From IMG/VR virus record IMGVR_UViG_3300003309_000010, positions 1-20,390 of that record: a stretch of DNA of 20,390 nt. One strand, given 5' to 3'. The translations under genes were made by a program, and so were the position numbers. Position 1 is the stretch's first letter; the number at the start of each line of letters is the position of its first letter. This stretch comes from a virus. Below, one piece after another: positions 1 through 20,390 of this stretch. Below the pieces are notes generated by a model. That model had not been told where the DNA came from and searched no databases. It saw only the letters and a list, made by a program, of their open reading frames with translations.

Positions 1-3000
1 TTCTCGCATCCCTGCTTTACTAGCAGCTGCCGTACCAGCGGTTGCGCTTCCGCCCGCCAGCCCACCCTTAAGAAGATTACTGGCAGCGCTACCTGCACTT
101 AAAGATTGCGCCAGTTTAACGCCGCCCATTAGTGAGTCAACGCCCATACCAAGAAATTTGGAAAGTCCTCCAGCTATACCACCCAGAATCGAAACGATCT
201 TACCTAAGTGTTGATTACTCTCGGATTTCTCGGTTTTAGTAGGTTTCTCCTCCTTGTCTTCACGCAATGCTTTGCGTTTTTCCGCCAACCGTTTCAGGCT
301 ATCGCGCCAACCGCCGTCCCTAAACCCGTCACCATCGACGTCGCCTTTGACCGTTTTCTTTGCTTTCTTCTTTTCTTGCTCTTCGAACCACGTGGTTAAC
401 GAATCCGTGGTTGAAGATAATAGCTCCTTGGTTTTATTTTCTCGATTTTTAATGAACGTCTTTATCGTTTCCGATAGCTTAGAGATTTCGCTCTTCTTAG
501 TGTCTGACGAACTGCTGTCGGTATCTTTACGAGAAAATACAGACGACATCTTGTTCCGTATAGATTCCTTAGCTTTGTCGACTTTAGCGCGTGTCCTATC
601 ACTAATGTGTTCCTCGTAAAATTGTTTAGCGCGTTCATTCAGAGAAGTGCGTTTTTCATCGACATATTCCGATATCGACGATGTGGCGTCTTTTCGATTG
701 AAAAGTTTCGCATCTTCTATTCTACTAACAATGTTGTCCCAAACCTTCTTAGTCGTTTTAGGACCACCTTCGTCCAGCTTATCTTGACCCTCAACGCGGT
801 TAAATATCCGTTTAACCATAGACGATACCGTTTCCGATAACTCGTCTTTACTGATTGTTGAGGTTTTAGTCGAATTCGTCTCGACCTCCGAACTGCTCTG
901 GTGTTTAGACTCCTCCCTGTTAACATCCACTTCGGTTTCCGCATTTGTGTATTTACGGTTCGAAATATTGATGTCTTGCGCGTGCTGACTTTTAGTCCTT
1001 TTCTGAACACTGGTCTCCTTGTCATTAAACACAGGATCGTTTGTCGAGTAAACGTACACGTTTTGCGTTTGAAAGATAGTGTCATCAGGCAACCTTAAAA
1101 AGGTCGCTTTGGCCACAGCACCATCCATTAACCCTTTCAGTAATTTGCTACCTTGCCCGACAACGGTCATGGGTAGTTTAAACAACTTACTCGCTAATCC
1201 GCCCGCTGCGGCGACACCTCTACCTGCGAGTGAACCTAATCCCTTCATTCGTAACTTGTCTCCTGAGACGTTACGTAACCCCTCCTTAATATCATCAGGC
1301 GATATCACTACCTTGGGTTGACCGTCTGCGGTTTCGTAAATAGAACCTTCCACTGACAGTAAATCTTTGAAGCTGCGAATTTGAACCTGTTTACCATCTT
1401 TTAGATAATAATAACGACCTTCCTTAATGTCCTTAGCCGTCATCGCCAACCGGCCATCTTTGGTGTATACATCCGTTACCTTATTGACACTCTCTTTGAT
1501 GGATTGGTACATATCCGTAATGAAATCACCGGCAGTGCTTATTGTGTCACCGCCAAACTGTTTCAACTTACGAGTGATTGTCAATGGTGCCCGGAACAGT
1601 TCACCTGATAATTCTTTCGCTTTCTTAAACACTCCTTGCTTGCGAGTGTACAAACCTTTACCGTAGTCTTCTTGGGAGATGACGACTTGGTCGGTTTCGG
1701 TATTGTATACAGGTCCGTTGATATCGTCGATGTTAGCTATGGCTTTGCCTACAACCTCTCCGTTGACATAGTTGTAGTATATTCCGCGATTAATATCTCT
1801 ACCCAGCAAACTGGGACTGACATCACCCTCGACGTAAATATCGGTTTGACCACGGGTGTAATCCGATAACTTTCGATTTGCAAATCGAAAGGCACTCTGT
1901 ACTCTATCTTGGGCTCCTCGACGGATACCCGATATCATCGATTTACCTTTAGATATCATTCTGGAGACACGTTTGCGCCCACCCCTTAACAACTGAATAG
2001 GCTTAGAAAACAAGGACTTAGCTTTAGATTTAATGCTATCAAATGCCCAGGCAGAATCGACTACATTTCCGGAGGCTACTGCTGCAACCAAACCACGAAT
2101 TTCTTCTAACAGTTCCGTGTTATTACCAATACCATCAGAGCTGGATTCCATCGCAGCGGTTAGGGTTGTTAGTTCTTCCAACACTGCGTCCATCTTATCC
2201 AGCATCGGACTTCCGCTTGGTTTGGCGCTAGTCTGATTAGTAACGGTAGACGAATCGTCGTGGTAGTACTCGTTGCTCTCGTTGTTCTCCACATAGCGCT
2301 GCTCAAGGTTGTCCACTAACGTACAGATTTTATCTGCCAAGTTAACTTTCACACCATTGACATTCAGTTCGTAATCCTTAGTAAGGAGATGGTTAATTGT
2401 GCTGTTATCTGAATAGTCAGGCGTTCCATCTTGATACACCGAATACGTGGTAAGGTTATCAATATTATCCCCACCGTAATGATTGGTACGATAAGACGCC
2501 ATTTCGGTTTGCAGGGTTGGGTTATGGTACTGCAAATTTTGAGTATTAGACGTTTTGATTTGTCTGAGCGCGTTTTGTACCCTCTGATTTGTAGTATTAC
2601 CTTCGGTATGGTAACGATCACCGTTAGAAGTGTAGTTGTCCTCGTCAGCATTGTGACTTGCGTTAAAAGTGTAGTTATTCCCATTTGTACGATAACGATC
2701 GCCGTTTACCCACAGTTGAGGATTTATATTACTGTTCGTTGTCCAGTTGGTTGAGACATCGCCGTACGTCTGAGTTTGAGAGTAGTCCGGTACAAACGAC
2801 GTATACCTGAGAGTATCCCCAGTAATATCACTCATACGGACATCAGATGTTTGCGCGCGCCGATTGTCGACAGTTGAATCCGAAAACTGGTAAGAGGTTG
2901 TTGGGTTCAAACTCGCGTTTGTGTTTTTCGCCGCGTTGTAGACAGACGATGAATTCGTGGATTTATCGAGATAACTGGGTTGAATATTTTGTACAGATCG

Positions 3001-5562: not shown

Positions 5563-5585
5563 GTCTAGCTCCATGTGTAAATAAT

Positions 5586-5589
5586 CATA
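5586..5589 (-). promoter_or_regulatory. Candidate phiKZ-type late promoter (TATG)
   Basis: The minus strand reads cTATGattatttacacatGGAGctagacATG, placing TATG ~24 nt upstream of the virion gene start. phiKZ late promoters have a TATG consensus at the start site. The motif is only 4 nt long. Confidence 0.4.
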
Positions 5590-5624
5590 GCCTTTGCGGG
5601 TATCGTTGATACAACCAGGCAACG

Positions 5625-5650
5625 ATTTATAAGGATATATTATATCGGTG
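5625..5650 (+). promoter_or_regulatory. Candidate phiKZ-type early (virion RNAP) promoter
   Basis: ATTTATAAGGATATATTATATCGGTG has TATATTAT (5636-5643), a 7/8 match to the phiKZ early motif TATATTAC, with an upstream TTTA tract. It is intergenic and ~50 nt before the first cassette gene. Confidence 0.6.
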
Positions 5651-5691
5651 TAAATGCACTTTAATCGCAACCCTTAATAAGGAGAGAACGC

Positions 5692-6648
5692 ATGACAGAC
5701 GGTACAAAAATGTACAATTTCTCAACGCTCCAAAACGACGACGTTACCATTTGCATTGATGGTCTACGTGTCCGTGCGGTTTTGGTAGTCGGGTTAACTT
5801 ACGCCAGATTCTGGGTAAACACTGATGGAATACAGGATTATTTTAATCGGGATTTCAATGGTTTGTGTGGGGATTGGTGTAGTACCGCGAGTGCCAGACC
5901 CACCCACAGTCTCTTACTAACTCATGGGTACGATGGGTTATTCAATAGTGAGGTGGTGGTTAACACTTTAGAGTGTGAACGATTCGAAGGTTCAGTAACC
6001 CTTCCTCGAATTCTATCTCAAGCGGGTATTGTGATGTCCCGCGTAGATAAAGGGTATCAACTGACGTATCCAACGTTGGCCTACGAACAGCGATTATTTG
6101 ATCCGCAAATTTTCGCGTTAGACGACGCCGATTTGTCTCTGAATCTGACCAAAACGTTAAAGGATCTACTGCACTGTCATACATTGACAGGTGCGAATCT
6201 GAACGACTACATTCTGTGCGTATTGGCTAAATTTCGTCACGATTTGTATCAAGGTTCTCGATGCGCTGGTTGGGCAGTGGCAGTTGAAAGCTTAAGGCAC
6301 AACAAAGAGATATTTGACTCTATTAGAATGTACGGTATTAAAACGCAAAAAGACGAGAGTACGTTGGTGTTAGCGAAATCCTCCAACGAACATGGTACCG
6401 TAAAAGTCTATCTCGGATTTCATGAGGATACAGGACCCACTATGGTTGTGGAGTCTATGTCGTCAGAATCTCCAGAAATCATCTATTGCAGTTTAGATGA
6501 AATCTGGAATTCCAACTTGACCGTATTATCTTCAGATATGATCGCGGACAAAGCCGCGACATTGGGCATTGAGCTATCGGCTGAAGAAATGGAACAAATT
6601 AATACTAACAGGACCACAAAAGATGAGTTACAAACAAAAAGTAAATAA
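5692..6648 (+). CDS. Hypothetical protein, paralogue family A domain plus C-terminal extension (318 aa)
   Basis: AAGGAG SD. Motifs VTICIDGLRVRAVLV...RFWVN (W41) and TLPRILSQAGIVM. Confidence 0.85.
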   Translation: MTDGTKMYNFSTLQNDDVTICIDGLRVRAVLVVGLTYARFWVNTDGIQDYFNRDFNGLCGDWCSTASARPTHSLLLTHGYDGLFNSEVVVNTLECERFEGSVTLPRILSQAGIVMSRVDKGYQLTYPTLAYEQRLFDPQIFALDDADLSLNLTKTLKDLLHCHTLTGANLNDYILCVLAKFRHDLYQGSRCAGWAVAVESLRHNKEIFDSIRMYGIKTQKDESTLVLAKSSNEHGTVKVYLGFHEDTGPTMVVESMSSESPEIIYCSLDEIWNSNLTVLSSDMIADKAATLGIELSAEEMEQINTNRTTKDELQTKSK

Positions 6649-7708
6649 CACCTACGTAGATAAAACCACCCTACCCAATCAAATTGATGTAGACACTGTC
6701 GTCGAACTGACGATAAAGGACTGTCATCTGGATTTTGCCGAAGGGTTACCTGAAATGCCGCGCCTTAAAAAGATACGTTTCGAGTACTGTCGCGGTGAAG
6801 ACATTATACTATTCACTACCCAACAAAACTTGAGCGAAGTAAGCTTCTTTCGTTGTGACGCGACAACCATCGATTTCGAAACGTATCGGGTGGACTTGGA
6901 GCGGGTCATGGTGAAAGATTGTCGGTATCTGGAGAAACTCGTCGGTGTCGATGAATTGCGTTTACAACATTTTACAGCGATAAAATGTCCGTTTCTAAAA
7001 ATACCGTTTTTAGAACCAGCGAATAAATTGCTCTCCTTTGGATGGCGCGATATGAGATTGGGCGCTCTCCCTCTCAACCTCATCCCAAAAGTAAAATGGT
7101 TAGATGTATCGAGAACCCATCTGAACGAAGATCCTAATCTGACCAAACTGACAAATTTGTCTTCTGTTAAGTTGGAAGACACTACCCGAGATTCACGCAA
7201 ACCCTTAAGAATACCAAGGAGTGTTCATACCGTGGTAGTGCGTGACCCCACCATAGTGTCACCTGTCGATACCGTTAAAACGCGTATAGTCGTCACTCCT
7301 AGTGGTAAGGGTAGACCTGAATCACGGAAATTTATGTCAAAGACGGTGTTAGCTACCACAGATCGTCTTTCGGCTCGGGAAAAACAGACTGCCTCCGAAG
7401 AAGATGAAAGTGAGATTGTCGAGCCGTCCCAACCTATATTTTCTCCTGAACTGGAAAGTTCGGAAAAGCACAAGGTGTATCTGGACAAAGTAAGGCGTCA
7501 AGCGTGGAACGAATTTGATGAAAGTGAATTTAAACACTTCCTTATTAAAGTGCCTACCCACGCCTTAGTGAAGCTAGACATTTGTAGCCAGTACAATGTG
7601 GCCAAGAAGGTACACAGAGTCGCTGCATCGGTTTATAGAGATCACCCTAACTGGGTACTGTTTAAACCGACGCATATTGTAACCAACGAAATTATTGATG
7701 AAGGATAA
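6623..7708 (+). CDS. Leucine-rich repeat protein (Cys-containing LRR) with C-terminal extra region, 361 aa
   Basis: Start re-placed at ATG 6623 (AGGA SD). LxxIxxxxC-type repeats: VVELTIKDC, LKKIRFEYC, LSEVSFFRC, LERVMVKDC, LQHFTAIKC, VKWLDVSRT, LSSVKLEDT. An acidic linker precedes a ~70-aa C-terminal region. Confidence 0.8.
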   Translation: MSYKQKVNNTYVDKTTLPNQIDVDTVVELTIKDCHLDFAEGLPEMPRLKKIRFEYCRGEDIILFTTQQNLSEVSFFRCDATTIDFETYRVDLERVMVKDCRYLEKLVGVDELRLQHFTAIKCPFLKIPFLEPANKLLSFGWRDMRLGALPLNLIPKVKWLDVSRTHLNEDPNLTKLTNLSSVKLEDTTRDSRKPLRIPRSVHTVVVRDPTIVSPVDTVKTRIVVTPSGKGRPESRKFMSKTVLATTDRLSAREKQTASEEDESEIVEPSQPIFSPELESSEKHKVYLDKVRRQAWNEFDESEFKHFLIKVPTHALVKLDICSQYNVAKKVHRVAASVYRDHPNWVLFKPTHIVTNEIIDEG

Positions 7709-7713
7709 CCGCC

Positions 7714-8328
7714 ATGTTACTCAACAGCTATTACCCCATCTTCTTACACACAAAGTTCTCTGACAAGGACATCGAACGTTTAATTAAACTATTTAGCGAG
7801 TTGGTTGATTCCGTCTTTTCAGCTAAGAACAGGCCTTTGGTCAGCATACTTGGGAAGTTACATATCGACCTTATCCCGGCCGAACTGGCAAGAGTGGACA
7901 AATTGCTCTCCAAAAAAGAACGTGCTGCTTTAGAGAAAATCTTTCCTTTAAAGACAGAACACGATGTGGCGGTTTTAAAAACCATTTTGGGACTGTTTCC
8001 GGTGTTGATGGCGTTCGCCAATTCCCATATGACCATCGAAGAATTCGTTCACTTCGAAGTGTCAAAACCTCAATTCAGCTGGAATGAGTTGGAGTCAAGT
8101 GATGGTGAGTTTACCGCAGACACGTTGCTAAACAACGCTAAGCCGGACGTATATTACGTCAATTTTGCTATCAGGGTGACGAAGCTTGAAGACGAAATGG
8201 TGAAAGGTAAAAGTCGTAAACCAAAGAAATCTAACCATTGGAATGAACCCGGTTTGGATGCGGAAGCTGAAGCGATGGTGAGAGACCGTCTCAAAGCAGA
8301 ACAGGGCGATGAACCGCCTTGGGACTAA
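7714..8328 (+). CDS. Hypothetical protein (204 aa), possible paralogue of 13207..13659
   Basis: AAGGA SD. N-terminus MLLNSYYP...FSDKDIERLI; basic linker, then an acidic tail ending DEPPWD. Confidence 0.85.
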   Translation: MLLNSYYPIFLHTKFSDKDIERLIKLFSELVDSVFSAKNRPLVSILGKLHIDLIPAELARVDKLLSKKERAALEKIFPLKTEHDVAVLKTILGLFPVLMAFANSHMTIEEFVHFEVSKPQFSWNELESSDGEFTADTLLNNAKPDVYYVNFAIRVTKLEDEMVKGKSRKPKKSNHWNEPGLDAEAEAMVRDRLKAEQGDEPPWD

Positions 8329-8343
8329 TAGGGAGGCATCAAC

Positions 8344-8787
8344 ATGTGTGACTTTGATGGGGATGAGTTTGACGGCGGAGGTTTCGACCAGTACGAACTT
8401 AATCCTGAACTCAACGCGCCTCTAGGTAGAACCGTGAGGTATAAATTGGCCGGGAACGCGCTTCATCTGGATTTAAGCTCCCCTAAAAGCATGACCGTTA
8501 TAGCATCCGATCTTGTTGTGGCGACGGTTTTATCCGATCCCGACGTATACAATGTAGATAAAGCAACATGCTGTAATGTGGGGATCTTAGAGACGAATCA
8601 GTATTCCTATTTCGTATATGCTTATCGAGTGTCAGGAAGATCCAAAATCAAGATCGACGTAAGGATAGAAGTTAACGACGGATTCATTCTGTCTGGGGAG
8701 TCCGCATTTGAGAGTGTGGATTCAGAGTACATAAAACGCGCACTTGAACCCTATTTGGGGAGTTCAATGTCAATCGAAAATGATTGA
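8344..8787 (+). CDS. Hypothetical protein (147 aa) with acidic N-terminus
   Basis: GGGAGG SD; tight packing with neighbouring genes. Confidence 0.8.
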   Translation: MCDFDGDEFDGGGFDQYELNPELNAPLGRTVRYKLAGNALHLDLSSPKSMTVIASDLVVATVLSDPDVYNVDKATCCNVGILETNQYSYFVYAYRVSGRSKIKIDVRIEVNDGFILSGESAFESVDSEYIKRALEPYLGSSMSIEND

Positions 8788-8806
8788 ATCAATGGAGTAA
8801 AAAAGA

Positions 8807-9883
8807 ATGTCTGAAAAATACACAATACAGTATCGCACTGGTGCGAAAGAGTTAACAATTGCGACTCTCTCCGTCGTTGACGATGAAATCGTTGAAATTG
8901 TTGTCCGAAGCGAACATTTTGAATCGTACTGGTGTGCGAATAACCTGTTTCCGCCCCAGTATATGAAGTTTGTTTATTCTCATGCCAGAGAAGGTGCGGA
9001 GTTGTTAAACCACACGTCGGTGTCTGAGTTTGAACACTCCGATGCGCCGTGCACGTTAATATCGGCGTTGTCGGATGCCGGACTGTATATTGATTTCAGT
9101 GGGGAAGGAGCCATCGTCGAGTTCGGCGGATTCATTGATGATGACGATGTGCTATGGAACAAACATGCGGGACGTTATGAAGGAAAGAACATTTCGTCAA
9201 TGGCTTTAGAAGTGTTGTTAGTCCATGCGCCAATAACTTGGGATGAAGAAAAAGACGAAGACCCTAGAGGTCCGTTTGATTTCCTCTCCCCGATAGCGCC
9301 AACAACACGCAGCTCAAGCCTTACCGATTTGGCGTTTGAACTTCATAATAAGGAGTATCGTTTTACGCGATACGACTACACCACGATTGATGGCGCCAAG
9401 GTGATTATGTTCACTTACGAAGAGAAGGAAGTCTATCTCGTGTACATCAATCCTGAAAAGGAAATTTGGATAATCGATACGGCGTGCGGACACGACACTG
9501 ACGAGGTAGAAACTTTCAAGCTGTTACATTTAACACTGGACGAAAACAACCCTACCCGGTACATCAATTATCGCACTTCTATCTCTGGTTCGATGTCCAG
9601 AAAGAAACTCGATAAAGATAAAACGTTAGGGTCATCGATGGTGCAGTGGGACCATCGGCTGCCCGTCCTTGCGCCGAAGTCAGGCGGGACGGTCGAACGC
9701 CGTCAGATAACATCCGCTGCGTTTGATCGCCAACGCGTGGATAATCGCTGTCTAATGTTGACCTACAACGATAAGGATATCCGTAACGCAACAGACAACG
9801 ATATCTGGTGCGGTCTTGGTGAACCCCGTATGCTGGAAAAATCCACACCATTAATTAACTCGTGGGTAGCACCACCTTGGTAG
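8807..9883 (+). CDS. Hypothetical protein, family A domain plus a possible degenerate second copy (358 aa)
   Basis: GGAG SD. Motifs LSVVDDEIVEIVV...SYWCAN (W42) and TLISALSDAGLYI. The second half has VIMFTYEEKEVYLVYI...EIWII. Confidence 0.85.
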   Translation: MSEKYTIQYRTGAKELTIATLSVVDDEIVEIVVRSEHFESYWCANNLFPPQYMKFVYSHAREGAELLNHTSVSEFEHSDAPCTLISALSDAGLYIDFSGEGAIVEFGGFIDDDDVLWNKHAGRYEGKNISSMALEVLLVHAPITWDEEKDEDPRGPFDFLSPIAPTTRSSSLTDLAFELHNKEYRFTRYDYTTIDGAKVIMFTYEEKEVYLVYINPEKEIWIIDTACGHDTDEVETFKLLHLTLDENNPTRYINYRTSISGSMSRKKLDKDKTLGSSMVQWDHRLPVLAPKSGGTVERRQITSAAFDRQRVDNRCLMLTYNDKDIRNATDNDIWCGLGEPRMLEKSTPLINSWVAPPW

Positions 9884-9906
9884 TGAAAAAATAACAGAAA
9901 ACGTAC

Positions 9907-9928
9907 AACGGTCGCTGTGGCGACCGTT
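9907..9928 (+). promoter_or_regulatory. Intergenic stem-loop directly upstream of an SD
   Basis: AACGGTCGC-tgtg-GCGACCGTT forms a 9-bp stem, followed immediately by AGGAG (9929-9933). There is no U-tract. Confidence 0.6.
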
Positions 9929-9940
9929 AGGAGCACAAAA

Positions 9941-10606
9941 ATGAAACAAGATAATGAAGTTAATCGACAGTATTTATACCAATCGGCGAATGGTGCGCTG
10001 GTAGCGATTACTATCACCAGTGGCGAGATTACGTTCATAAATGCGTGGACGAAATCAGCCTTCATGGTATGGATGGGGAATCGCGCTGAAACAGCGGCGC
10101 CTATTACACCCACCAAACCTGGTTATTACAAAGTCGTCTACGATGGCCCCCAAAAAGGTGCCAAGGTGATCGACAAAACCAGTATCGTCTACACTGATGG
10201 AATTGCTTTGCCTGAAATACGCCAAGCGCTCGGGGAGTGCGGTATTGCCATCAATCAAACGGAAGGTTCGAAGAATATCTTTATTGATTTCTTCGGTACA
10301 TTGGACGGTGACGGACAGCAAAGGGATTTTGCGTGGTTACCGTTCGGCGAGGTATCTATTACCGAAGCCGTTATAGGTATACTCGATTCTCGCACAGCAG
10401 TTATCACTAACCCGATATCGGTGGAGTGCGTGGAGAGGATAGAAGCCGAAGCCACTGCAAGAATGAAAGACGAATTAGGTTATCCGAAACGAACTTTTAC
10501 TTTCGAACAGGAAGTGACTAACTATCGTCAGACGTTCAAATTGTTGAAGGAAGGACAAGACGGCGGGACATATGTTCTGGGAACCACACAAAAAGATAAA
10601 TCGTAA
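9941..10606 (+). CDS. Hypothetical protein, family A (221 aa)
   Basis: Start re-placed at ATG 9941 (AGGAG SD). Motifs ITITSGEITFINA...MVWMGN (W44) and EIRQALGECGIAI. Confidence 0.85.
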   Translation: MKQDNEVNRQYLYQSANGALVAITITSGEITFINAWTKSAFMVWMGNRAETAAPITPTKPGYYKVVYDGPQKGAKVIDKTSIVYTDGIALPEIRQALGECGIAINQTEGSKNIFIDFFGTLDGDGQQRDFAWLPFGEVSITEAVIGILDSRTAVITNPISVECVERIEAEATARMKDELGYPKRTFTFEQEVTNYRQTFKLLKEGQDGGTYVLGTTQKDKS

Positions 10607-10633
10607 ATTAACACTATTGAGAGGTGAATTATC

Positions 10634-11203
10634 ATGCAACGTGCAGCATTAGTCGGTTACGTACACAAAACAGCCCATTTCGATTACAACGTACTTATGG
10701 GCCTCATTGACAATAAGGTCGTCTTTGCCAGAAACCAGTGGTTTAATCGAAAGACTTTTTGGGTTGACGATCGAACACTCGTCACCCCCCTCGCTCCAGA
10801 ATACCTATCGAGCGCTTATGAGGTGGTATACAAAATGTCTGGGGAAGGTATACAGGCTGAACCCACAACTGTCCCTCAGTCTACCATTGTGCGTCGCGAA
10901 CATAAGAACGCATTAGTATCTTTGCAGCGCCAGATGTCCCAGACGGGCGTCAATCTCAACAGAGACCTGAAAGATGGCACGATAGGTTGTATCTGGGCAG
11001 AAGTTGCAGGGACGAATAACATCGTCCCCATAACGGAAGGGAAATCGGTAATCGATATATTCGAACACTCCCCCGGCGTATCGGTTGAAGAACTTTCTTT
11101 CGAGCTGTTGAAAAAGAGAGTTGCTTACGAAGAGTACATCTTCCATCAAGAATCTTCTGGCGTTGTCGCTCCGGATCAGAAAGAAAAACCAACCAAGTTG
11201 TAG
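10634..11203 (+). CDS. Hypothetical protein, family A (189 aa)
   Basis: GAGGTG SD. Motifs MGLIDNKVVFAR...TFWVD (W43) and SLQRQMSQTGVNL. Confidence 0.85.
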   Translation: MQRAALVGYVHKTAHFDYNVLMGLIDNKVVFARNQWFNRKTFWVDDRTLVTPLAPEYLSSAYEVVYKMSGEGIQAEPTTVPQSTIVRREHKNALVSLQRQMSQTGVNLNRDLKDGTIGCIWAEVAGTNNIVPITEGKSVIDIFEHSPGVSVEELSFELLKKRVAYEEYIFHQESSGVVAPDQKEKPTKL

Positions 11204-11211
11204 GAGGTCGC

Positions 11212-11685
11212 TTGATAAACAAAGTAATCTCAGGCGGACAGACGGGTGCCGACTTGGGAGGATTACTTGCTGCTGAACGCGTAGGGATTGCAACCGGCGG
11301 GTTGGCACCTAAAGGGTATTATACCGAAAAGGGTAACCAACCCATTCTAGGAACACGGTTCGGATTAACTGAAGATGTATCGCCAGGATACACGCACCGG
11401 ACTGGAGTTAACGTACGCAACAGCGATGTAACATTAATTTTAGCGACCGAACCTAAATCGTACGGGACTGTTCAGACTATTCGGTACTGTGACGAGTACG
11501 GTAGGCGTTACAAATTGATCAACCCGTTTATCGAGGATGCCAGTGTAGGCGTCACTTTTCTGCGACAACATCGTCCCAATGTTGTCAACATAGCAGGTAA
11601 CCGGGAAACTGTCTCGCCAGGCTTAACCAAAATCACCAGAGACTGGCTAATCAATTGCTTCACCACCATCATCGATGGTCGGTAG
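11212..11685 (+). CDS. cpYpsA / 'putative molybdenum cofactor carrier' protein, SLOG superfamily (157 aa)
   Basis: TTG start with AGGAGGT SD. Hallmark motifs KVISGGQTGAD, TGGLAPKGYYTE, RTGVNVRNSDVTL, GTVQT and VNIAGNRE. Confidence 0.88.
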   Translation: MINKVISGGQTGADLGGLLAAERVGIATGGLAPKGYYTEKGNQPILGTRFGLTEDVSPGYTHRTGVNVRNSDVTLILATEPKSYGTVQTIRYCDEYGRRYKLINPFIEDASVGVTFLRQHRPNVVNIAGNRETVSPGLTKITRDWLINCFTTIIDGR

Positions 11686-11709
11686 CTTATTATAAAAGAG
11701 GAAACTGGA

Positions 11710-12501
11710 ATGCAAAAGCATAAAATTACTGTGGTTGACGAGAAGGTCACCAATCTACATTTAACTCATTGGTATCCAACTTCGAACATCACAGAGTTAG
11801 AATTTGTTGACTGTGAATTCGATCTGGAAGCAGGAACGCTCAGAACGTTCACAGCGTTAGAAAAGATGTCATTTTACGGATGCTCTGGCAACCCCATCAT
11901 CGACATTGGCGTTCAGCCATGGCTGCACACCGTAGTGTTAGGACATTGTAATTTCACTTCTATGAATCTACAGACAGAAGTTAATGAGACGCTCACCACC
12001 GTGATGATAACTAACTGTCATTGTGTCGAGAAGGTGTTTTTACCTACTAGCGTTAATCACTTGTTGGTAGATAATTGTCCCAACGTGGAAACGATGTTTC
12101 GCACGGAATATGAACGGATAACTTTCCTCATGCTGTCTCGTTGTAACATCACTGATTTTGATTTCTCTAAAACTCCCAACTTGGAGTATCTCAGCCTACA
12201 CACCATGAGTTATCACGGCGAGGTCCCTGACTTTTCCGGGTTAGAAAAGTTGGAAGTGTTGGATGTTAGAAACCTACAAACCAATTGGGAAAAGGTCGCA
12301 CCGTCAGGTATACTGGTACCGCCCAGCGTAACGAAAATTATCGAGACGCCGTGGGCAAATCATCGATACCCGACAGTCGGTGGACGCGATAACGCTGATG
12401 AGAAATGCGTTCAGCTGCTTTGCAGTGGCCCTGTGAACGACGACATCTTACCAGAAGCGGTCAGAGCGTTGGGTAAAGTAAAAGGGTACAAAGCTAAATA
12501 A
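11710..12501 (+). CDS. Leucine-rich repeat protein (263 aa), paralogue of 6623..7708
   Basis: GAGGA SD. Repeats ITELEFVDC, LEKMSFYGC, LHTVVLGHC, LTTVMITNC, VNHLLVDNC, ITFLMLSRC, LEYLSLHTM, LEVLDVRNL. Confidence 0.85.
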   Translation: MQKHKITVVDEKVTNLHLTHWYPTSNITELEFVDCEFDLEAGTLRTFTALEKMSFYGCSGNPIIDIGVQPWLHTVVLGHCNFTSMNLQTEVNETLTTVMITNCHCVEKVFLPTSVNHLLVDNCPNVETMFRTEYERITFLMLSRCNITDFDFSKTPNLEYLSLHTMSYHGEVPDFSGLEKLEVLDVRNLQTNWEKVAPSGILVPPSVTKIIETPWANHRYPTVGGRDNADEKCVQLLCSGPVNDDILPEAVRALGKVKGYKAK

Positions 12502-12527
12502 AATAATAACAATAAAGGAACAAATTC

Positions 12528-13109
12528 ATGTCCAAAATAATCGCAATTTCTTATACTACAACTACTTCAGCGAGAGCATCCATCGTGTTCGACAAACACG
12601 GGGTTATTGCCGCCGGTGTTGAGTCTAACAAGCGGGCTGGTATAAATCGATCTGTATGGTTTCACCGCAATGCGTTGCCGCCTAGAGACGTGGGTGGTAA
12701 TGTGACGCTGACCCGATCGTATAAGTTCACAACGCTAAGAGATAAACAGAAGTGGATAGCTGATAAAGTAGCGATAAGCAGGGGATTGTTGGCAAGCTCC
12801 ATCGAATTAGCTCAGTTTTTATCTGATAAAGTGGGAGTATATTACAGTGCGTTTGAAGATGTTTCTCAACTAGATGGAATCGAATTCCAATATAAAGGAG
12901 AGATACAATATCATTCGTTAGGCGGTGCGTTGCAAGCAGATGCGTTTGATGGCGTTTTAGGCATCAAAGTTGTTGAGTTATCTAAAAGTAATTTCAATCG
13001 CGCTGTAGAACTCGAGTTATTGTCTTTTGAAAACGAAGCGAGAGATGGGCTCATGGTACCCTTAACGGATAAGCGTTATTGGCGAGTAGTACGCGATAAA
13101 AAAGAGTGA
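12528..13109 (+). CDS. Hypothetical protein, family A (193 aa)
   Basis: AAGGA SD. Motifs SIVFDKHGVIAAGV...SVWFHRNALP (W44) and ELAQFLSDKVGVYY. Confidence 0.85.
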   Translation: MSKIIAISYTTTTSARASIVFDKHGVIAAGVESNKRAGINRSVWFHRNALPPRDVGGNVTLTRSYKFTTLRDKQKWIADKVAISRGLLASSIELAQFLSDKVGVYYSAFEDVSQLDGIEFQYKGEIQYHSLGGALQADAFDGVLGIKVVELSKSNFNRAVELELLSFENEARDGLMVPLTDKRYWRVVRDKKE

Positions 13110-13122
13110 TGGTTTTTGATTA

Positions 13123-13152
13123 CGTTAGCGGGTGCCTAGGCACCCGCTAACG
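13123..13152. repeat. 30-bp perfect intergenic palindrome (stem-loop without U-tract)
   Basis: CGTTAGCGGGTGCCTAGGCACCCGCTAACG; neither strand has a poly-T run downstream. Confidence 0.9.
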
Positions 13153-13206
13153 GTCGTATTACCAACACACTCGGGTTAAATAAGTTGTTCTTGTAAGGAG
13201 AATTCA

Positions 13207-13659
13207 ATGCTAATCAACCAACTTATTCCTAAAGGCGATCTTAAAGATTCTGACATCAACAATATATTGATCGATCTTAAAACAGACGGCTTTGCTAACG
13301 ACAACGCTAGAGTTCAAGCACTCCAAGAACTTATCGGGGTTTGGAGCGGGGACGAACACGATTTGTGGGATGCGCTCAGACACACTTTAATTCTCAATGA
13401 ACATTCTGAGAAAGAGTGGACTCACATATCCGTGTGGTTAAAACTCGCCGATGATAAAGGATCGTCAAGGTTAAGATTCGTTCTGCAATACATTTTGGCT
13501 AAACGTTTAGTCGGACTATCCGATCCAAAATCTATTAAGCTTCATAAGTGGACCATTGATGATAGATACGTGATGCTTGTTTTTAAATCAACATCTAAAC
13601 CCGCCCCCAAATCTAAACAGAGAGTTAAGAAACCAACGTATCTGAAGGTGGTTAAATAA
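13207..13659 (+). CDS. Hypothetical protein (150 aa) with SspB-like C-terminal LKVVK motif
   Basis: TAAGGAG SD. Ends STSKPAPKSKQRVKKPTYLKVVK-stop. Confidence 0.85.
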   Translation: MLINQLIPKGDLKDSDINNILIDLKTDGFANDNARVQALQELIGVWSGDEHDLWDALRHTLILNEHSEKEWTHISVWLKLADDKGSSRLRFVLQYILAKRLVGLSDPKSIKLHKWTIDDRYVMLVFKSTSKPAPKSKQRVKKPTYLKVVK

Positions 13660-13673
13660 GTTAGAGGTGCTCA

Positions 13674-14222
13674 ATGACCGTCACTGACGAGTATGTGTTT
13701 TATTGGACGAAGAATGATTTTCCGTCACATTGGTATCCTGCGGGATTTCACTACAAAGGGTTTTACTTCGCTACAGTGGAGCACTTTATGATGGTGCAGA
13801 AAGCTATTTTGTTTGAGATGTCAGACAAGACTAAGCAAGAAATAGCCAAGATACTGTCTAAAGAATCTCGGTATACTGCGTGGCAAATATTGCAAACATC
13901 CGACCCTAAAGAAGCGAAACAATTAGGCCGACAGGTGAAATGGTTTAATAAGAAGGTGTGGGAAGATGCGGTTAAGCCGGTTTTGTTTTTGGGTAATCTG
14001 TTAAAGTATCGTCAGGATGGCGCGCTTCAAGCCATGCTACTCAGATACCCTAATCGGGTTTTTGTAGAGGCGTCACCTTACGATAAAATATACGGAATAG
14101 GGTTATCAGATTCCGATGATAGGATCCATGATCCCACTAACTGGAAAGGAACCAATTGGGCTGGTGAGGCCGTTACCGCAGTCAGAGATTATATTGGAGG
14201 GCAAAATGTACGTCACTCATAA
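13674..14222 (+). CDS. NADAR family protein (YbiA-like; ADP-ribose N-glycosidase)
   Basis: GAGGTG SD. Motifs FPSHWY, FATVEHFMMVQKAILF, DPKEAKQLGRQV, GNLLKY, FVEASPYDKIYGIG and WKGTNWAG. Confidence 0.92.
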   Translation: MTVTDEYVFYWTKNDFPSHWYPAGFHYKGFYFATVEHFMMVQKAILFEMSDKTKQEIAKILSKESRYTAWQILQTSDPKEAKQLGRQVKWFNKKVWEDAVKPVLFLGNLLKYRQDGALQAMLLRYPNRVFVEASPYDKIYGIGLSDSDDRIHDPTNWKGTNWAGEAVTAVRDYIGGQNVRHS

Positions 14223-14601
14223 TCTACCCATAGAGTTAGGTACAAAACCGCTTGTAGAGCGCGTTATGAATACAGCGTGGTATGTACGTAATCGTGGTTA
14301 TTTGGAATTCAATGATCATGCGAAGTTCTTGAATGACTGGGATGGCACAGACATGGATTTTTTGTATGGAATGGCTTCGATGGATCCTCATAAAGAGCTG
14401 TTACCAAAGAACGACTCAGACGTGGTGAAACTCAAACTCATGCGAGGATTCTACCATTTCTGGAAGCGTGTCGAACAACAAGATCAGATAAAGCTTGTCA
14501 AACTGATCGACTGGAAGGTTTACGAGCCATTTATCAACTTAGTTTTCTTAGCGAGACCAAGAGTCATTGTGCTAAAAGACTTAAGTGGAAACAAACATTA
14601 A
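14206..14601 (+). CDS. Hypothetical protein (131 aa)
   Basis: Start re-placed at ATG 14206 (GGAGG SD); overlaps the NADAR stop by 17 nt. Confidence 0.8.
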   Translation: MYVTHNLPIELGTKPLVERVMNTAWYVRNRGYLEFNDHAKFLNDWDGTDMDFLYGMASMDPHKELLPKNDSDVVKLKLMRGFYHFWKRVEQQDQIKLVKLIDWKVYEPFINLVFLARPRVIVLKDLSGNKH

Positions 14602-14610
14602 GGAGGTAGG

Positions 14611-14664
14611 ATGATTTCTGTAACCACTAAACAGGACGCGAGGTGTTTTTGTGTGGTATCTTGA
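14611..14664 (+). CDS. 17-codon mini-ORF (MISVTTKQDARCFCVVS), or frameshifted N-terminus of the next gene
   Basis: Near-perfect SD TAAGGAGGT directly upstream of ATG 14611; overlaps the GTG at 14651 in another frame. Confidence 0.4.
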   Translation: MISVTTKQDARCFCVVS

Positions 14665-15313
14665 ACCCGTCGGTAAAGTACCTAGCGGGGAAGTGCGTGT
14701 GAATTTGGCTATCCCTTCCCCCGCTAACGAAGCCATAGATATCATGCAGTATATGGTTTCGGTGCACTCTCGCCTACTAACCCCCAACACGCTGAGACAA
14801 TTAGCCAAATTATATTGTGATTTTATGGCAAATCGTGAATACAAATCAAAAGTACAGCTAAAAAGGGTACCCAAAGAGTTCTGTCATTTCGTCTCAGAAA
14901 GGGGATTTCCAGAATTCGCTGGTGACAGCCTGACAAAAACCTTTTTAACGTATATCGCGTTATCCATGATTAATCAACTCTATGAGTTGAATCTCAGACT
15001 CTGGCAAGATATGCTGTACGTAACCGGATATGTCTGTTGGGAGACCGCCGGAATCACCTACGAGAACGCCATTATCAATTCCATCGTAGTTGGTTATCTC
15101 TGCGATAACAAATCACCTGTCAAAAAGTTGGACTATCTTGATCCTAGAGATATGCAAGGTAACTTATACTTACCTGTCGACAGGATTATAATAGATCAGT
15201 CTATCCTTAACGCTATTGAGGTCGGTAGGTTGGCAGGTAAAGACCCCGCCAATAAGAAAAAGTCTCAAGGTAAAAAGAAACCCGACAATGGGTTAGACAA
15301 TGATATTGTCTAA
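14651..15313 (+). CDS. Hypothetical protein (220 aa)
   Basis: GTG start with GAGGT SD; basic then acidic C-terminal tail. The true start is uncertain (see mini-ORF). Confidence 0.8.
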   Translation: MWYLEPVGKVPSGEVRVNLAIPSPANEAIDIMQYMVSVHSRLLTPNTLRQLAKLYCDFMANREYKSKVQLKRVPKEFCHFVSERGFPEFAGDSLTKTFLTYIALSMINQLYELNLRLWQDMLYVTGYVCWETAGITYENAIINSIVVGYLCDNKSPVKKLDYLDPRDMQGNLYLPVDRIIIDQSILNAIEVGRLAGKDPANKKKSQGKKKPDNGLDNDIV

Positions 15314-15340
15314 CCTAAAATTAAAAAAGAGGAAGCCCCC

Positions 15341-17095
15341 ATGTCTACACTATCACCAGAACACTATATCGAAGTTAACTACATGTTGTCTGTAGGTAAC
15401 AAACCTGAATCGATACACAAAATCGTTATGAAAAACGGAAGACTGTTAGCGGTTTATGCTAAGTCTAACATAAACACAGATACTTATATCTGGTTGAACC
15501 TGAAGGAGTTGCCTGAAGGTGTTAGACACGCGCTGGAAGTTTTCCCAGAAGCGGAAAACGCCAACCATCACTATTCCATGGATATATCCGGTAGCGACGG
15601 TAATCGTTTCTCTACTGAAGGTGACGACGAATATTTCGTTAGAGAGGCGTTGTCTCGGTCCGGTATCTCCTTGGAGTATGAGCAAGGTAAGCAAGCACTT
15701 TTATACTTAAACCCGGTGGTATGCGGTCACGGAATGGAAACTTCCGGAACGGAGATTCATACATCAAAGGCGATTAACGATGTTGTGGTGGTCGGTGATT
15801 ACGTCACCCATTTTCCTATTCTGCCTGGTGAGATAATCCCGCCAGAGCGGCTTTGTCAGTATTTAGCCGGTCTGCACACGACAGTTTACTATAAGTGGTT
15901 GGAGTGCAGACGTAACAGCCGAAGCTATGTTGATATCCCCTTCTCATCCAACAGATTTTTGAGAGCGGTGATATACGGTGAAGAAATTGTCGCTGCTATT
16001 GTCTATGACGCAGATAACATCGCTGTATGGTTAAACTACGCTAAATTACCTTGCGTGGACAAATTGGTACTTGAGACCCATGTTGCCGACAGAGGTTATG
16101 TTATGGCCAAGATGGGGTATGTTGACGGTAGAGTTAAACTCAATTCTCGTGAGTTGTTGACTGAGTATACTGATGGCGACTCGGTGTTGCAACGCGTGTT
16201 GAATCAGCTAGGTTGCATCGAGTTCGTCGGTAAACTCGGAGATGAAGGTGTACTCGTTATTTTCAATGACGTGATGGGGGATCCTTATGAACCTCACACT
16301 GAACCACAGAGTATAGCCAACATCCATTTATTGGCTAACATCGAAGGGGCTTCAGTTACACCGGTCTCAGAAGCGGAATCCAGCGGTTTCTTAAACCAAC
16401 TTGTTGGGTATATTAACGCGGACTTTATTGGGGGTGCGAGAGTATCGGATTTGTCTTACCAGTTTAATGCATTAAACATACTTGCATTAATTCAGTCTGG
16501 GTGGAACAAAGACATCAAAGCATTACCCTACAGAGAGTTGAGAATCACTTGTCAACATCAACGCACCATCAGTTTCTGGACAAAGGATGACGTTATTGTG
16601 TGCGCTAGGGTGCAAGGGGATAATCAGCGGATGTTATGGGTTAATGGTAAAATGTTAAAGGGTATCAAGTATCCTTCATCCTTTCCGGATTCAGTTTACC
16701 AAGACAAACCCTACTTCGCTTCTAAACATCCCGACTGTTTGGACACCGGGACAATCGAGGCAGACCACGGACCTTGGCAAGATACTTCGAAGCGTTGCCA
16801 TTCGTTACAAGGTGTGCTAGACTTTGCAGGGATAAAACTCATGAAAGAAGGAGAGGACATTGTTGGGATAAAGTCAGAAGATATTATCTTTATAGGGAAA
16901 TCGGGTATCTGGACACTCCCTCTAGACGCCCACGCCCCGATAGAGGATGTGACAACAGTCACTTCCCTTTTGAAGTTATTGCCCAGTATATTACTATTCC
17001 CGGCTCATGAGCGGGACATGATGGCTATTGCCAATGGATTTGTCGACGAGATGGACGAATTCGTTACCAAGGTAGTTGAAACCGATACCGTATAG
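15341..17095 (+). CDS. Hypothetical protein with three tandem family A domains (584 aa)
   Basis: GAGGA SD. Trp motifs YIWLN (15491), AVWLN (16028) and MLWVN (16637) are followed by VREALSRSGISL, LQRVLNQLGCIE and LQGVLDFAGIKL respectively. Confidence 0.88.
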   Translation: MSTLSPEHYIEVNYMLSVGNKPESIHKIVMKNGRLLAVYAKSNINTDTYIWLNLKELPEGVRHALEVFPEAENANHHYSMDISGSDGNRFSTEGDDEYFVREALSRSGISLEYEQGKQALLYLNPVVCGHGMETSGTEIHTSKAINDVVVVGDYVTHFPILPGEIIPPERLCQYLAGLHTTVYYKWLECRRNSRSYVDIPFSSNRFLRAVIYGEEIVAAIVYDADNIAVWLNYAKLPCVDKLVLETHVADRGYVMAKMGYVDGRVKLNSRELLTEYTDGDSVLQRVLNQLGCIEFVGKLGDEGVLVIFNDVMGDPYEPHTEPQSIANIHLLANIEGASVTPVSEAESSGFLNQLVGYINADFIGGARVSDLSYQFNALNILALIQSGWNKDIKALPYRELRITCQHQRTISFWTKDDVIVCARVQGDNQRMLWVNGKMLKGIKYPSSFPDSVYQDKPYFASKHPDCLDTGTIEADHGPWQDTSKRCHSLQGVLDFAGIKLMKEGEDIVGIKSEDIIFIGKSGIWTLPLDAHAPIEDVTTVTSLLKLLPSILLFPAHERDMMAIANGFVDEMDEFVTKVVETDTV

Positions 17096-17101
17096 TAAAT
17101 T

Positions 17102-17131
17102 AAAAAGAACGGACATGTCCGTTCTTTTTTT
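17102..17131. terminator. Bidirectional intrinsic terminator
   Basis: AAAAAGAACGGACATGTCCGTTCTTTTT is a 28-bp perfect palindrome (17102-17129), flanked by A5 and T7 tracts, 6 nt after the cassette's last stop codon. Confidence 0.85.
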
Positions 17132-17141
17132 GTTGAATTTT

Positions 17142-17145
17142 TATG
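17142..17145 (+). promoter_or_regulatory. Candidate phiKZ-type late promoter (TATG)
   Basis: ttttTATGaac lies between the terminator and the RNAP gene start (28 nt upstream). Its own ATG opens only 5 codons, so it is not the gene start. Confidence 0.45.
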
Positions 17146-17172
17146 AACTTACAAACTTAATCGAGATGCAGC

Positions 17173-20100
17173 ATGTACGAAAGTCTGACGCAATTTAGAA
17201 CAAAACACAAATTATCCAGTATTACCGAGCTGCCAGACACCACCACTTTCCAAGCTGGTATCCCTAGGGAACCCATATATCACTTCATGGATAGCCGGGA
17301 TACGTTAGGTCCCACCACGAGCGATATGTTCATCGCTGCCATTTTGGTGGAAGATGATAATGAGAAAATCTTCGTTAACCACATCACTGATATCCCCAAC
17401 CCAAGCGATAATTTAAAGAAGATAAGCGGTTCTGAACGTAGTGTTCCCGTTGAGTACCATAAACGGAATCGTAGGTTAAGCAGAGCGTTGAAGTTGGATA
17501 GAGCGTTAAGAGGGCGTGACCCGCTTGTCATCAACTATAACCCTATTTTCCACACCCATCGACGAGTCAGTGAACGAACCGAAGAACTCTACCCAGACAC
17601 GTTGTCTTACCTCGACACATTGAATCAGTCGATTAAACGTCTGGATACAAAGAGACTGCAATTTGTGGTGGTCAATTTACCCCAGATTATACCGCCAGAA
17701 GAAGAGCTGCGTAAACACATCGATAAGCAGACAGATACGTTACGTCGGTCATTGAAGACGTTTGAGTCCATCATGTTAGTCGAGCTGTTGAAAACCATGG
17801 TAGGTGAAGAAAAAACCTTGGATGGGTTATTTCAAGAGAACGTATATTTGACGTTGTACGATACAGGTTCCATTATCCACATCGATATGAACCAGTATCA
17901 AAAGATAACACAAAAAGTAGGCGATCAACAAAAGCTATCTTGGTGGTTAGATGTTATCACCAAACTCGTTGAATTAAGATCGGTTGAAACCGACGATGTG
18001 GAAGAGTCAGAAACGTACGCACAAAAGATCACCCAAGATGCGGAAAAAGAGGCCAAAGGGGATGTTAGAGACGAAACGACTCTTGCTTATGTGAGGCGTC
18101 TGGCTGCTAAAGGAACGGTCACGGAGAGAGAGTTAAAGCGTCATCTGGAACTTGCATCGTCCTATCGCAACATACCCACCCCCACCATCGGTGGAGAAAA
18201 CGGTAATGTGAAAACTGTTGCGGAGTTATTGGAGAAACAAGATAACACATCCATCGCTCTGAAGCCCGATACGCTACCTAAGTTTAAAGGGGTAGGTAGA
18301 TTTTCAGCCGACACCACCATTCGACGCATGGATGAGGATTACATCGCTAATCGATTCGAAGCCGATGTGATTGAGACGACACTGGCCTTCCAAAAAGGAC
18401 CGTTTGCAGTTACGAATATCACCAGAGAAGAAGTAAGGGACGCCGGAAACCACAACGTTGTCTACAAGATAGAGACAAAAGGAATAAAAGGCGGGAAAGG
18501 TAAATTTCCAATTGTCTTTCCTAAAATTGCCACAGACGGTACCTTCCAATCAGGAGGCGTCACGTATCGTATGGCCGCCCAACGTGCGTCGTTCCCTTTA
18601 ATCAAAACGGGTCCCAGCGAGGTGGTGTTGACATCGAGTATGTCTAAGCTTTTCTTGACCAGTGGTACAAAGAAGAAAAATGACTACTACAATTGGGTGG
18701 ATAAAAAGATAAAAGAAAAACGGCATGAAGGTGTTGTGACCGAACTCAAATTCGGCAACGACGTCACCAACGATCCCAACATAGACGTCCCTCCGATGTT
18801 GTCTTACCTAGGCAACAAGTATAAAGGGTTCACAGTCGGCACAGTGCAGTTCGACTTTACCGAAGAAACGGTCAAGCCGGAAGGTAAAGGTTGGATTTGC
18901 GGTATAGACGTCCAAGATAATAAAAAGCATACGGTTATCATGTTGCCTAATGGCCAACTCATGTGGTCGCAAGAGAACAGGTCCTCAACTGCGAAACCGT
19001 ATCTGTTAGGAAGCATTGAAGATCTCTTAGGATTGGACATTAGTAAAGCCCCTGTACCTTTTGCGGAATTAAAAGTTAAAGGGAAGCAGGTACCCATGGG
19101 TATCTTAATGGCCTATTGGAAAGGTTTCCGGAAAAGTCTCAAATATTTGGGTATTGAATACGACGTTATTTCAGCCACTGACAAGTCGCGTCAGTCAGGA
19201 TCATTTAACAAAAAATTCGTTCTGCATCTGGAAGATGTTAAGGTTATACTCAAACCTAACGGTGCCTTGCAAACGCTCTTTGCGGCAGGCTGGCAGGATT
19301 ACCATAGAGAGTTGAGGGAGTTAAAGTTTCGTGAACTGGATGTGCAGAAAAACTACAGTGTGTTGTTCACGCCTAAAGGTATCACGAAAAGCCACGAAAT
19401 CGAATTCGACTTAATGGAGGATTTCTGGATAGACCCGGTTACTGAAAAGCTGCTAAAATCCAGAGATTATCCTACAGAATTCTTCACACTATTCACCAGA
19501 GCGGTCGAGATGCTGGTAGATCGACAACATCACAACGAGAATAGCGGTGAGGTGTTCATTGAAAAACGGTACTCAAGAGTACTCGATGTGGTGTATGGTG
19601 AAATGGTGAGAGCCATGAGGGATTATCATCGTAATGGTCAGCCTTCTCGGAAGATATCAGCACCACAAGATGCAATTCTGACAAAGATACTCATGGATGA
19701 AAGTGTTTCTCCCGTCGAACAGGTCAATCCGCTGGGCGTAATAGGCGAACAAAACCGTATTGTGTATTCAGGTATCGGAGGACGGACTAATCGATCGTTG
19801 GTAGGCAGACACCGTGTATACGATAAAGGAGACAGAGGTAGAATATCTGAAGCGTTTACTGACGACGGAAAAGCTGGAACGGTTATGTACTATTCTGCGG
19901 CCCCCTCTATAGAAAACGTCTACGGGTTACCCGGTAAGAGCGACAACAACAACTTGGCCAACCAGTTGTCAATCACCATGTTGTTGAACCCGTTTGTCAT
20001 ATACGACGATCCTAAACGAGGCAACTATGCGCGTATTCAAGAGAACGCGTGGCGGTCAAACAATGGGCGCGTCGTTCCTCCTGTGGTGACAGGTCAAAGT

Positions 20101-20390
20101 GTGTTGATTGCCCACCAAGTCGGCGAATTGTACGCATTTGCTACAACCCAGGCGGGGAAAGTAACTGAAGTAAATGATGAAGCAATTGTTGTTGAATATG
20201 CAGATGGAACGACCAAAAGCTACGTGCTGGGCCTCATGTTTGGGACAGGTGCGGGTAAGGTATACCCTAGACGTTTAATCACGGACAGGGCCAAAGGTTA
20301 CAAGTTTGAGGCTCACGAAATACTCGCGTGGGACGATTACTTCTTTTACAGGGACAGGTACAATAAGACGCAAGTGAGCATGTATAACGG
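17173..20390 (+). CDS. Virion RNA polymerase beta-like subunit (phiKZ gp178-like), 3' end outside window
   Basis: ATG 17173 opens MYESLTQFRTKHKL, and the same frame is open at the window end (>=1072 aa). Beta-subunit motifs: FPKIATDGTFQSGGVTYRMAAQR, EQVNPLGVIGEQNRI, GGRTNRSLVGRHRVYDKGDRGRISEAFTDDGKAG, PFVIYDDPKRGNYARIQ and AGKVTEVNDEAIVVEYADG. A long phage-specific N-terminal extension is typical of gp178. Confidence 0.9.
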   Translation, partial: MYESLTQFRTKHKLSSITELPDTTTFQAGIPREPIYHFMDSRDTLGPTTSDMFIAAILVEDDNEKIFVNHITDIPNPSDNLKKISGSERSVPVEYHKRNRRLSRALKLDRALRGRDPLVINYNPIFHTHRRVSERTEELYPDTLSYLDTLNQSIKRLDTKRLQFVVVNLPQIIPPEEELRKHIDKQTDTLRRSLKTFESIMLVELLKTMVGEEKTLDGLFQENVYLTLYDTGSIIHIDMNQYQKITQKVGDQQKLSWWLDVITKLVELRSVETDDVEESETYAQKITQDAEKEAKGDVRDETTLAYVRRLAAKGTVTERELKRHLELASSYRNIPTPTIGGENGNVKTVAELLEKQDNTSIALKPDTLPKFKGVGRFSADTTIRRMDEDYIANRFEADVIETTLAFQKGPFAVTNITREEVRDAGNHNVVYKIETKGIKGGKGKFPIVFPKIATDGTFQSGGVTYRMAAQRASFPLIKTGPSEVVLTSSMSKLFLTSGTKKKNDYYNWVDKKIKEKRHEGVVTELKFGNDVTNDPNIDVPPMLSYLGNKYKGFTVGTVQFDFTEETVKPEGKGWICGIDVQDNKKHTVIMLPNGQLMWSQENRSSTAKPYLLGSIEDLLGLDISKAPVPFAELKVKGKQVPMGILMAYWKGFRKSLKYLGIEYDVISATDKSRQSGSFNKKFVLHLEDVKVILKPNGALQTLFAAGWQDYHRELRELKFRELDVQKNYSVLFTPKGITKSHEIEFDLMEDFWIDPVTEKLLKSRDYPTEFFTLFTRAVEMLVDRQHHNENSGEVFIEKRYSRVLDVVYGEMVRAMRDYHRNGQPSRKISAPQDAILTKILMDESVSPVEQVNPLGVIGEQNRIVYSGIGGRTNRSLVGRHRVYDKGDRGRISEAFTDDGKAGTVMYYSAAPSIENVYGLPGKSDNNNLANQLSITMLLNPFVIYDDPKRGNYARIQENAWRSNNGRVVPPVVTGQSVLIAHQVGELYAFATTQAGKVTEVNDEAIVVEYADGTTKSYVLGLMFGTGAGKVYPRRLITDRAKGYKFEAHEILAWDDYFFYRDRYNKTQVSMYN

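Follow-up and report, generated by a model that had tools for sequence, protein, structure and literature searches.

Lineage-specific gene expansions have been described in several jumbo phages. Phages G and 121Q carry more than 30 tandem genes of this origin (PMC5646251), and a Zn-ribbon expansion in phage G comprises about 35 copies (PMC7824862). Paralogue families of variable number are also carried by phiKZ-like phages, such as the head families A and B of SPN3US and phiKZ (PMC5694885), while phiKZ possesses non-essential, putative anti-defence regions in which uncharacterised accessory genes are clustered with an AT-rich early motif (10.1101/2025.11.23.690004; early virion RNA polymerase units, PMC7598289). 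Here, we consider a further expansion in the window, that is, the 20,390 nucleotides (20.4 kb) at the start of a viral contig of 111,154 bp (IMG/VR record IMGVR_UViG_3300003309_000010; estimated completeness 41%). It concerns family A, a protein domain of 150-170 residues that appears in seven, possibly eight, copies in six genes of one accessory cassette and that, as far as the searches described below reach, seems to be an undescribed and possibly lineage-restricted domain family.

Family A can be counted among the lineage-specific expansions already known from jumbo phages (PMC5646251, PMC7824862, PMC13282480), in which arrays of this sort are common. It shares with them the clustering of copies of one small domain, several homologous copies lying in one region, and may share the restriction to a lineage. 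It differs from those of G and 121Q in having fewer copies (7-8 domains in six genes) that are far more diverged (10-27% identity), rather than over 30 genes of high similarity, and in being a different domain, interleaved with other accessory genes and in one case fused into a three-domain protein. The preliminary description of this DNA, which had proposed an undescribed system, was right that phiKZ-like phages carry paralogue families (PMC5694885) but overstated the novelty: what the accessory cassette contains is a domain family not described before, and features of this kind are on record for jumbo phages (PMC5646251, PMC7824862, PMC5694885). The SPN3US and phiKZ head families are likewise paralogue families of variable number, yet they are virion proteins, whereas family A lies behind an early-type promoter and has no sequence similarity to them. 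PF12699, which covers the phiKZ internal proteins and SPN3US family A, matches none of the six proteins at E 0.1 and nothing in the 111-kb genome part at E 10; SPN3US family B (gp138-gp154), of which 17 of 20 members were used, was negative in both hidden Markov model (HMM) and HHalign comparisons (probability 0.04-0.05), although, as a positive control, family B members withheld from the profile reached E 2e-10 or better. The accessory regions of phiKZ resemble the cassette in their clustered uncharacterised genes and AT-rich early motif, but no common protein family was found.

The relatedness of the copies is indicated by shared motifs and by profile comparisons calibrated against decoys. 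All eight copies contain the Trp reported earlier, at the residues given (41, 42, 44, 43, 44 and 51 in the genes starting at 5692, 8807, 9941, 10634, 12528 and 15341, with further Trp at 230 and 433 in the last, whose three domains are denoted a, b and c), and the distance from this residue to the start codon is alike in all six genes. A helix-Gly motif follows at Trp-to-Gly distances of 71, 50, 57, 62, 59, 57, 61 and 64; the described spacing (50-71, and 57-64 in six of eight) holds, but the strict pattern [LIVM]xxx[LIVM]xxxG[IVLC] is present in seven of the eight and absent from 12528. Identity between copies is very low, as had been stated (10-27%, median 17%), and the sole clear pairwise match among the genome's 114 open reading frames (ORFs) is between 8807 and 9941 (phmmer E ~1e-3). 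When each copy was left out of the profile HMM in turn and ranked with the 108 other ORFs, four of eight (8807, 9941, 10634 and 15341c; E 1e-4 to 0.07) came first, and the remaining four came 3rd to 7th of 109. Decoys were segments selected because they too contain the Trp and Gly motifs (64 sets, 512 scores); they came from a small pool of 10 segments from 9 of the 108 proteins and were not independent draws. Against them, the family reaches a profile bit sum of 74.1, compared with -14.5 +/- 4.5 for the decoy sets (maximum -4.7); seven copies exceed all 512 decoy scores, and 12528 is equalled by two. The profile-profile check proposed at the outset also favours the family, as every one of the eight copies scores above 25 of 25 sampled decoys in leave-one-out HHalign, though at low probabilities. 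For 12528, the HHalign margin is 0.2 score units over 35 columns, and its E-value to a profile built without it is 9.9 among 1114 six-frame segments; it is marginal in the leave-one-out HMM, decoy, HHalign and six-frame tests alike. Taken together, the tests give good support to the homology of seven copies; 12528 is doubtful. No ninth copy was detected in the 111 kb searched (~41% of the genome). The claimed paralogy is thus borne out by the leave-one-out and decoy tests for seven of the at least eight copies proposed, and the domain is shorter than the ~190 residues first given, a figure that corresponds to the repeat period in 15341.

The six genes all lie on the + strand. The gene at 5692..6648 (318 aa) carries its domain at about 5698-6204, which at 4.6 bits exceeds every one of the 512 decoy scores, followed by an unrelated C-terminal part; that at 8807..9883 (358 aa) carries one at 8807-9250, recognised by profile and HHalign, followed by a part not scored as family A. 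One domain each is found in 9941..10606 (221 aa; ~9956-10444; motifs and profile) and 10634..11203 (189 aa; profile). The doubtful 12528..13109 (193 aa; motifs and profile) matches in the beta-meander and Trp only and is basic (isoelectric point 9.2), and 15341..17095 (584 aa; profile) holds three domains at about 15362-15832, 15923-16405 and 16517-17044.

No relatives of family A were found in family libraries, in word-index searches, in a full scan of 1.84 billion representatives, or by tblastn on phage genomes and locus scans, and a first-look filter without positive control gave no match in five phiKZ-like genomes. The earlier statement that the domain has no known family agrees with the Pfam, PHROG and wider searches, and all six proteins form single-member clusters at 90% identity; the profile is shallow (8 rows) and distant orthologues would be missed, so orphan status holds within these limits. 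A tree of the copies gave no resolved branching. An identity of 10-27% is as compatible with old duplication as with the rapid diversification suggested before, and it is likely that the copies arose by old tandem duplications.

A structural model from an alignment of seven copies, built for the 8807 copy, reached a predicted local distance difference test (pLDDT) of 76 and a predicted template modelling score of 0.76. In the predicted fold, a beta-meander of six strands is followed by a helix that the conserved Gly caps, by two or three further strands and by another helix. Domains b and c of 15341, from a separate single-sequence model, agree with it in three-state secondary structure (Q3 0.56 and 0.58 vs 0.36 for shifts, with 0 of 555 shifts as high). 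The invariant columns of alignment A5 are Trp42 and Gly92; nearly all its other conserved columns hold hydrophobic residues within predicted strands and helices. Polar residues, Asp, Glu, His, Arg and Cys included, are nowhere invariant, and conserved catalytic residues are absent. The loop between the Trp strand and the helix varies (50-71 aa), net charge per domain ranges from -16 to +5, and no membrane segment is evident, the highest 19-residue hydropathy being 0.9-1.6. Given this pattern of conservation, variable loops and charge, a binding scaffold fits better than an enzyme, in line with the interaction scaffold proposed before. Among known folds, the Polo-box (Plk4 PB3) and LolA/LolB types resemble the model in layout only, with structure scores within background and no sequence support, and the copper amine oxidase N-terminal domain PF07833, another candidate, gave no HMM match. 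Among the best 50 structural matches listed, the modelled shape appears unlike solved structures, and it may represent a new fold.

By its genes, the phage is a chimallin-encoding, Chimalliviridae-type, uncultured marine jumbo phage with the gene content of the nucleus-forming type. The contig encodes chimallin (phrog_4795 nuclear shell protein, E 3e-10, genome 82537-84450), PhuZ (phrog_4733), both multisubunit RNA polymerase (RNAP) sets (phrogs 3148, 2986, 2987, 3295 and 3015), together with a phiKZ-like major capsid protein, terminase and tail sheath. Judged by the beta subunit of the virion RNAP (vRNAP), its closest cultured relative is Halocynthia phage JM-2012 (33% identity); two uncultured relatives, with RNAP identities of 45% and 41%, are known as proteins only. 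The phage is known from one metagenome, and positions 20-20000 of the window showed no sequence variants relative to a contig of public run X1, which is labelled as a coral metagenome and may be where this DNA came from.

In RNAP-encoding jumbo phages, early promoters consist of an AT-rich motif of ~10 nt, and the genes for the non-virion RNAP (nvRNAP) are early (PMC7598289); AT-rich early promoters are also reported for phiKZ (PMC10914365). A comparable motif, GGATATATTAY, occurs five times in the 111 kb, compared with 0.12 expected under a third-order Markov model, each time on the + strand and between genes (genome 5633, 25927, 45639, 64040 and 86377). The first copy, GGATATATTAT at 5633..5643 (+), is a likely early vRNAP promoter 59 nt upstream of the first cassette gene at 5692; another stands 43 nt before an nvRNAP subunit gene, two stand 52 and 70 nt before accessory genes, and one precedes a short frame. 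A conserved AT-rich motif of about 10 nt therefore stands before presumed early operons, including that of an nvRNAP gene. Shorter variants lie at genome 13150, 55774, 76193 and 101100. In 35 kb of JM-2012, the core ATATATTAY has six copies, of which four precede three accessory genes and two lie inside genes on the other strand; none is at the tail/RNAP junction. Early expression, as claimed for the family, is quite probable overall, likely for the first cassette genes and less sure for 15341, because a strong hairpin followed by the promoter-like variant ACGGTCGTATTAC (13123..13162, +) may split the cassette, giving two transcription units of which the second holds 15341. Both the motif and its shorter variant should help to locate this phage's early genes. 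The intergenic sequence around the variant is repeated at about 55755-55820 and 76175-76240 (genome), 20 kb apart, and many short, hydrophobic, membrane-like genes without family follow the second promoter copy at genome 25937-37628.

The cassette comprises fifteen + strand genes over 11.4 kb (5692-17095). On its left is a phiKZ-type large tail protein gene that runs off the contig (1..5670, - strand; phrog_3201, E 3e-130), and on its right the vRNAP beta subunit gene (17173..20390, +; phrog_3148, E 1e-210), preceded by a hairpin with U-runs on both sides (17102..17135), a likely terminator ending the cassette. The tail and beta genes are ~200 nt apart in JM-2012 and are separated by a single ~540-codon gene in BONAISHI, AH06, Stratton and L003, which carries an RNAP subunit annotation in AH06 and Stratton; none of these five has family A-type genes at this junction. 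Since their junctions hold ~200 nt or one gene, the 11.4 kb is accessory DNA, located where the junction has been rearranged. At genome 50838-52463, 30 kb from the beta gene, stands an RNAP subunit gene of 541 aa (phrog_2986), and the like-sized gene adjoining beta in four relatives suggests a relocation in the JM-2012 lineage. Besides family A, the cassette contains a cpYpsA SLOG-family gene (11212..11685, +; PF12694, E 4e-30), a NADAR gene (13674..14222, +; PF08719, E 3e-35), a leucine-rich-repeat (LRR) gene, a second LRR-like paralogue and five genes without family match. The LRR protein (263 aa; 11710..12501, +) matches PF12799 (E 1e-7) and, far below the cut-off, an InlJ model; a tblastn search of 50,697 phage records at E 0.01 gave no match to it. 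Its 361-aa paralogue (6623..7708, +; phmmer E 9e-8) has no Pfam match of its own. LRR proteins seem to be unusual in phages, and in a coral sample this pair could touch host or animal immunity. A 147-aa beta-rich orphan (8344-8787) has a C-terminal helix that recalls family A, with a family A profile score below 0. A 10-bp hairpin (9906..9929, +) sits immediately 5' of the ribosome-binding site of 9941; it lacks a + strand U-run and could act in RNA processing or translation control. Elsewhere in the genome, three phrog_5353-matching genes flank the terminase gene (45709-50790) as another small paralogue set, and about eight similar-sized genes (110-145 aa; 97534-100660) without PHROG match, before the nvRNAP genes, may be a further family.

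What the copies do can be proposed from this context. The reading we favour, if tentatively, is that they are transcribed early by the virion RNAP and act as soluble binders sharing one fold with different loops; each copy would bind a host protein of its own in the course of takeover or counter-defence. That they are binders rather than enzymes is probable; that their partners belong to the host rather than the phage is, within the binder case, slightly favoured, mixed roles being allowed for to some extent. Takeover or counter-defence is suggested by the setting, a probably early accessory cassette whose neighbours relate to nicotinamide adenine dinucleotide (NAD), NADAR and SLOG having been assigned to NAD-centred conflict in jumbo phages (PMC7824862). 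A more specific version, held to be improbable, makes family A a new-fold binder library with a conserved core and exchangeable loops, in which each copy would neutralise a different host sensor or effector that acts early against nucleus-forming phages (JukA, Avs5 or other NAD-consuming systems), the three-domain gene would be multivalent, and NADAR and SLOG would serve the same pathway. Several observations weigh against host binding by a common fold. NADAR has relatives in 706 phage records and is thus weak evidence of a defence island; copies of 10-27% identity may have unrelated jobs; and HHalign leave-one-out probabilities run from 1.5 to 59%. The confident model is of one copy from a 7-row alignment, the five models spanning pLDDT 47-76, and the single-sequence model of 15341 has a pLDDT of 32, with its domain a in disagreement with the 8807 model (Q3 0.42; 84 of 555 shifts as high). 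As for timing, GGATATATTAY was chosen after inspection of the sequence, and 15341 comes 9.7 kb further downstream, beyond two hairpins.

The same early context could instead serve the phage's own machinery, the copies being adaptors for the early infection vesicle, nucleus shell, import or transcription. The likely promoter common to an nvRNAP gene, the nucleus-forming type of phage and the scaffold-like conservation all accord with this, yet core machinery is conserved, whereas the filter mentioned above found no family A match in five phiKZ-like genomes, and the neighbours are accessory; phage-internal adaptors are therefore rather unlikely. Should the curved sheet with helices bind small or hydrophobic molecules (a lipid or a nucleotide signal), as in LolA/LolB, VioE and VtrC, the copies would be carriers or sponges, to which we give little probability. 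Virion head or ejection proteins akin to the two SPN3US families, which have up to 20 members (PMC5694885), would suit a phiKZ-like phage and a cassette between two virion genes; with the negative PF12699 and family B comparisons, the early-type promoter and a likely terminator that parts the cassette from the vRNAP gene, such a role is very improbable. It may also be asked whether the grouping is partly chance, with homology limited to four or five copies, while the others (chiefly 12528, next 15341a and 5692) would have only a strand-Trp/helix-Gly pattern in common. The single clear pairwise match, the missing strict motif and E 9.9 of 12528, and the discordant secondary structure of 15341a speak for this, but 5692 and 15341a exceed all 512 motif-matched decoys and 25 of 25 HHalign decoys, and the like Trp-to-start distance in six genes of one cassette leaves partial chance a low probability.

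Regardless of partner, the family shows that an alignment of in-genome paralogues can yield a confident model for orphan proteins. The six soluble genes, encoding 190-580 aa, can be synthesised and screened in laboratory strains, and the compact 8807 domain offers a target whose fold may be new. A 2026 review names Tad1 as the sole anti-defence protein that has been described from jumbo phages (PMC13282480); should the copies of family A bind defence proteins of the host, that very short list would gain a new fold.
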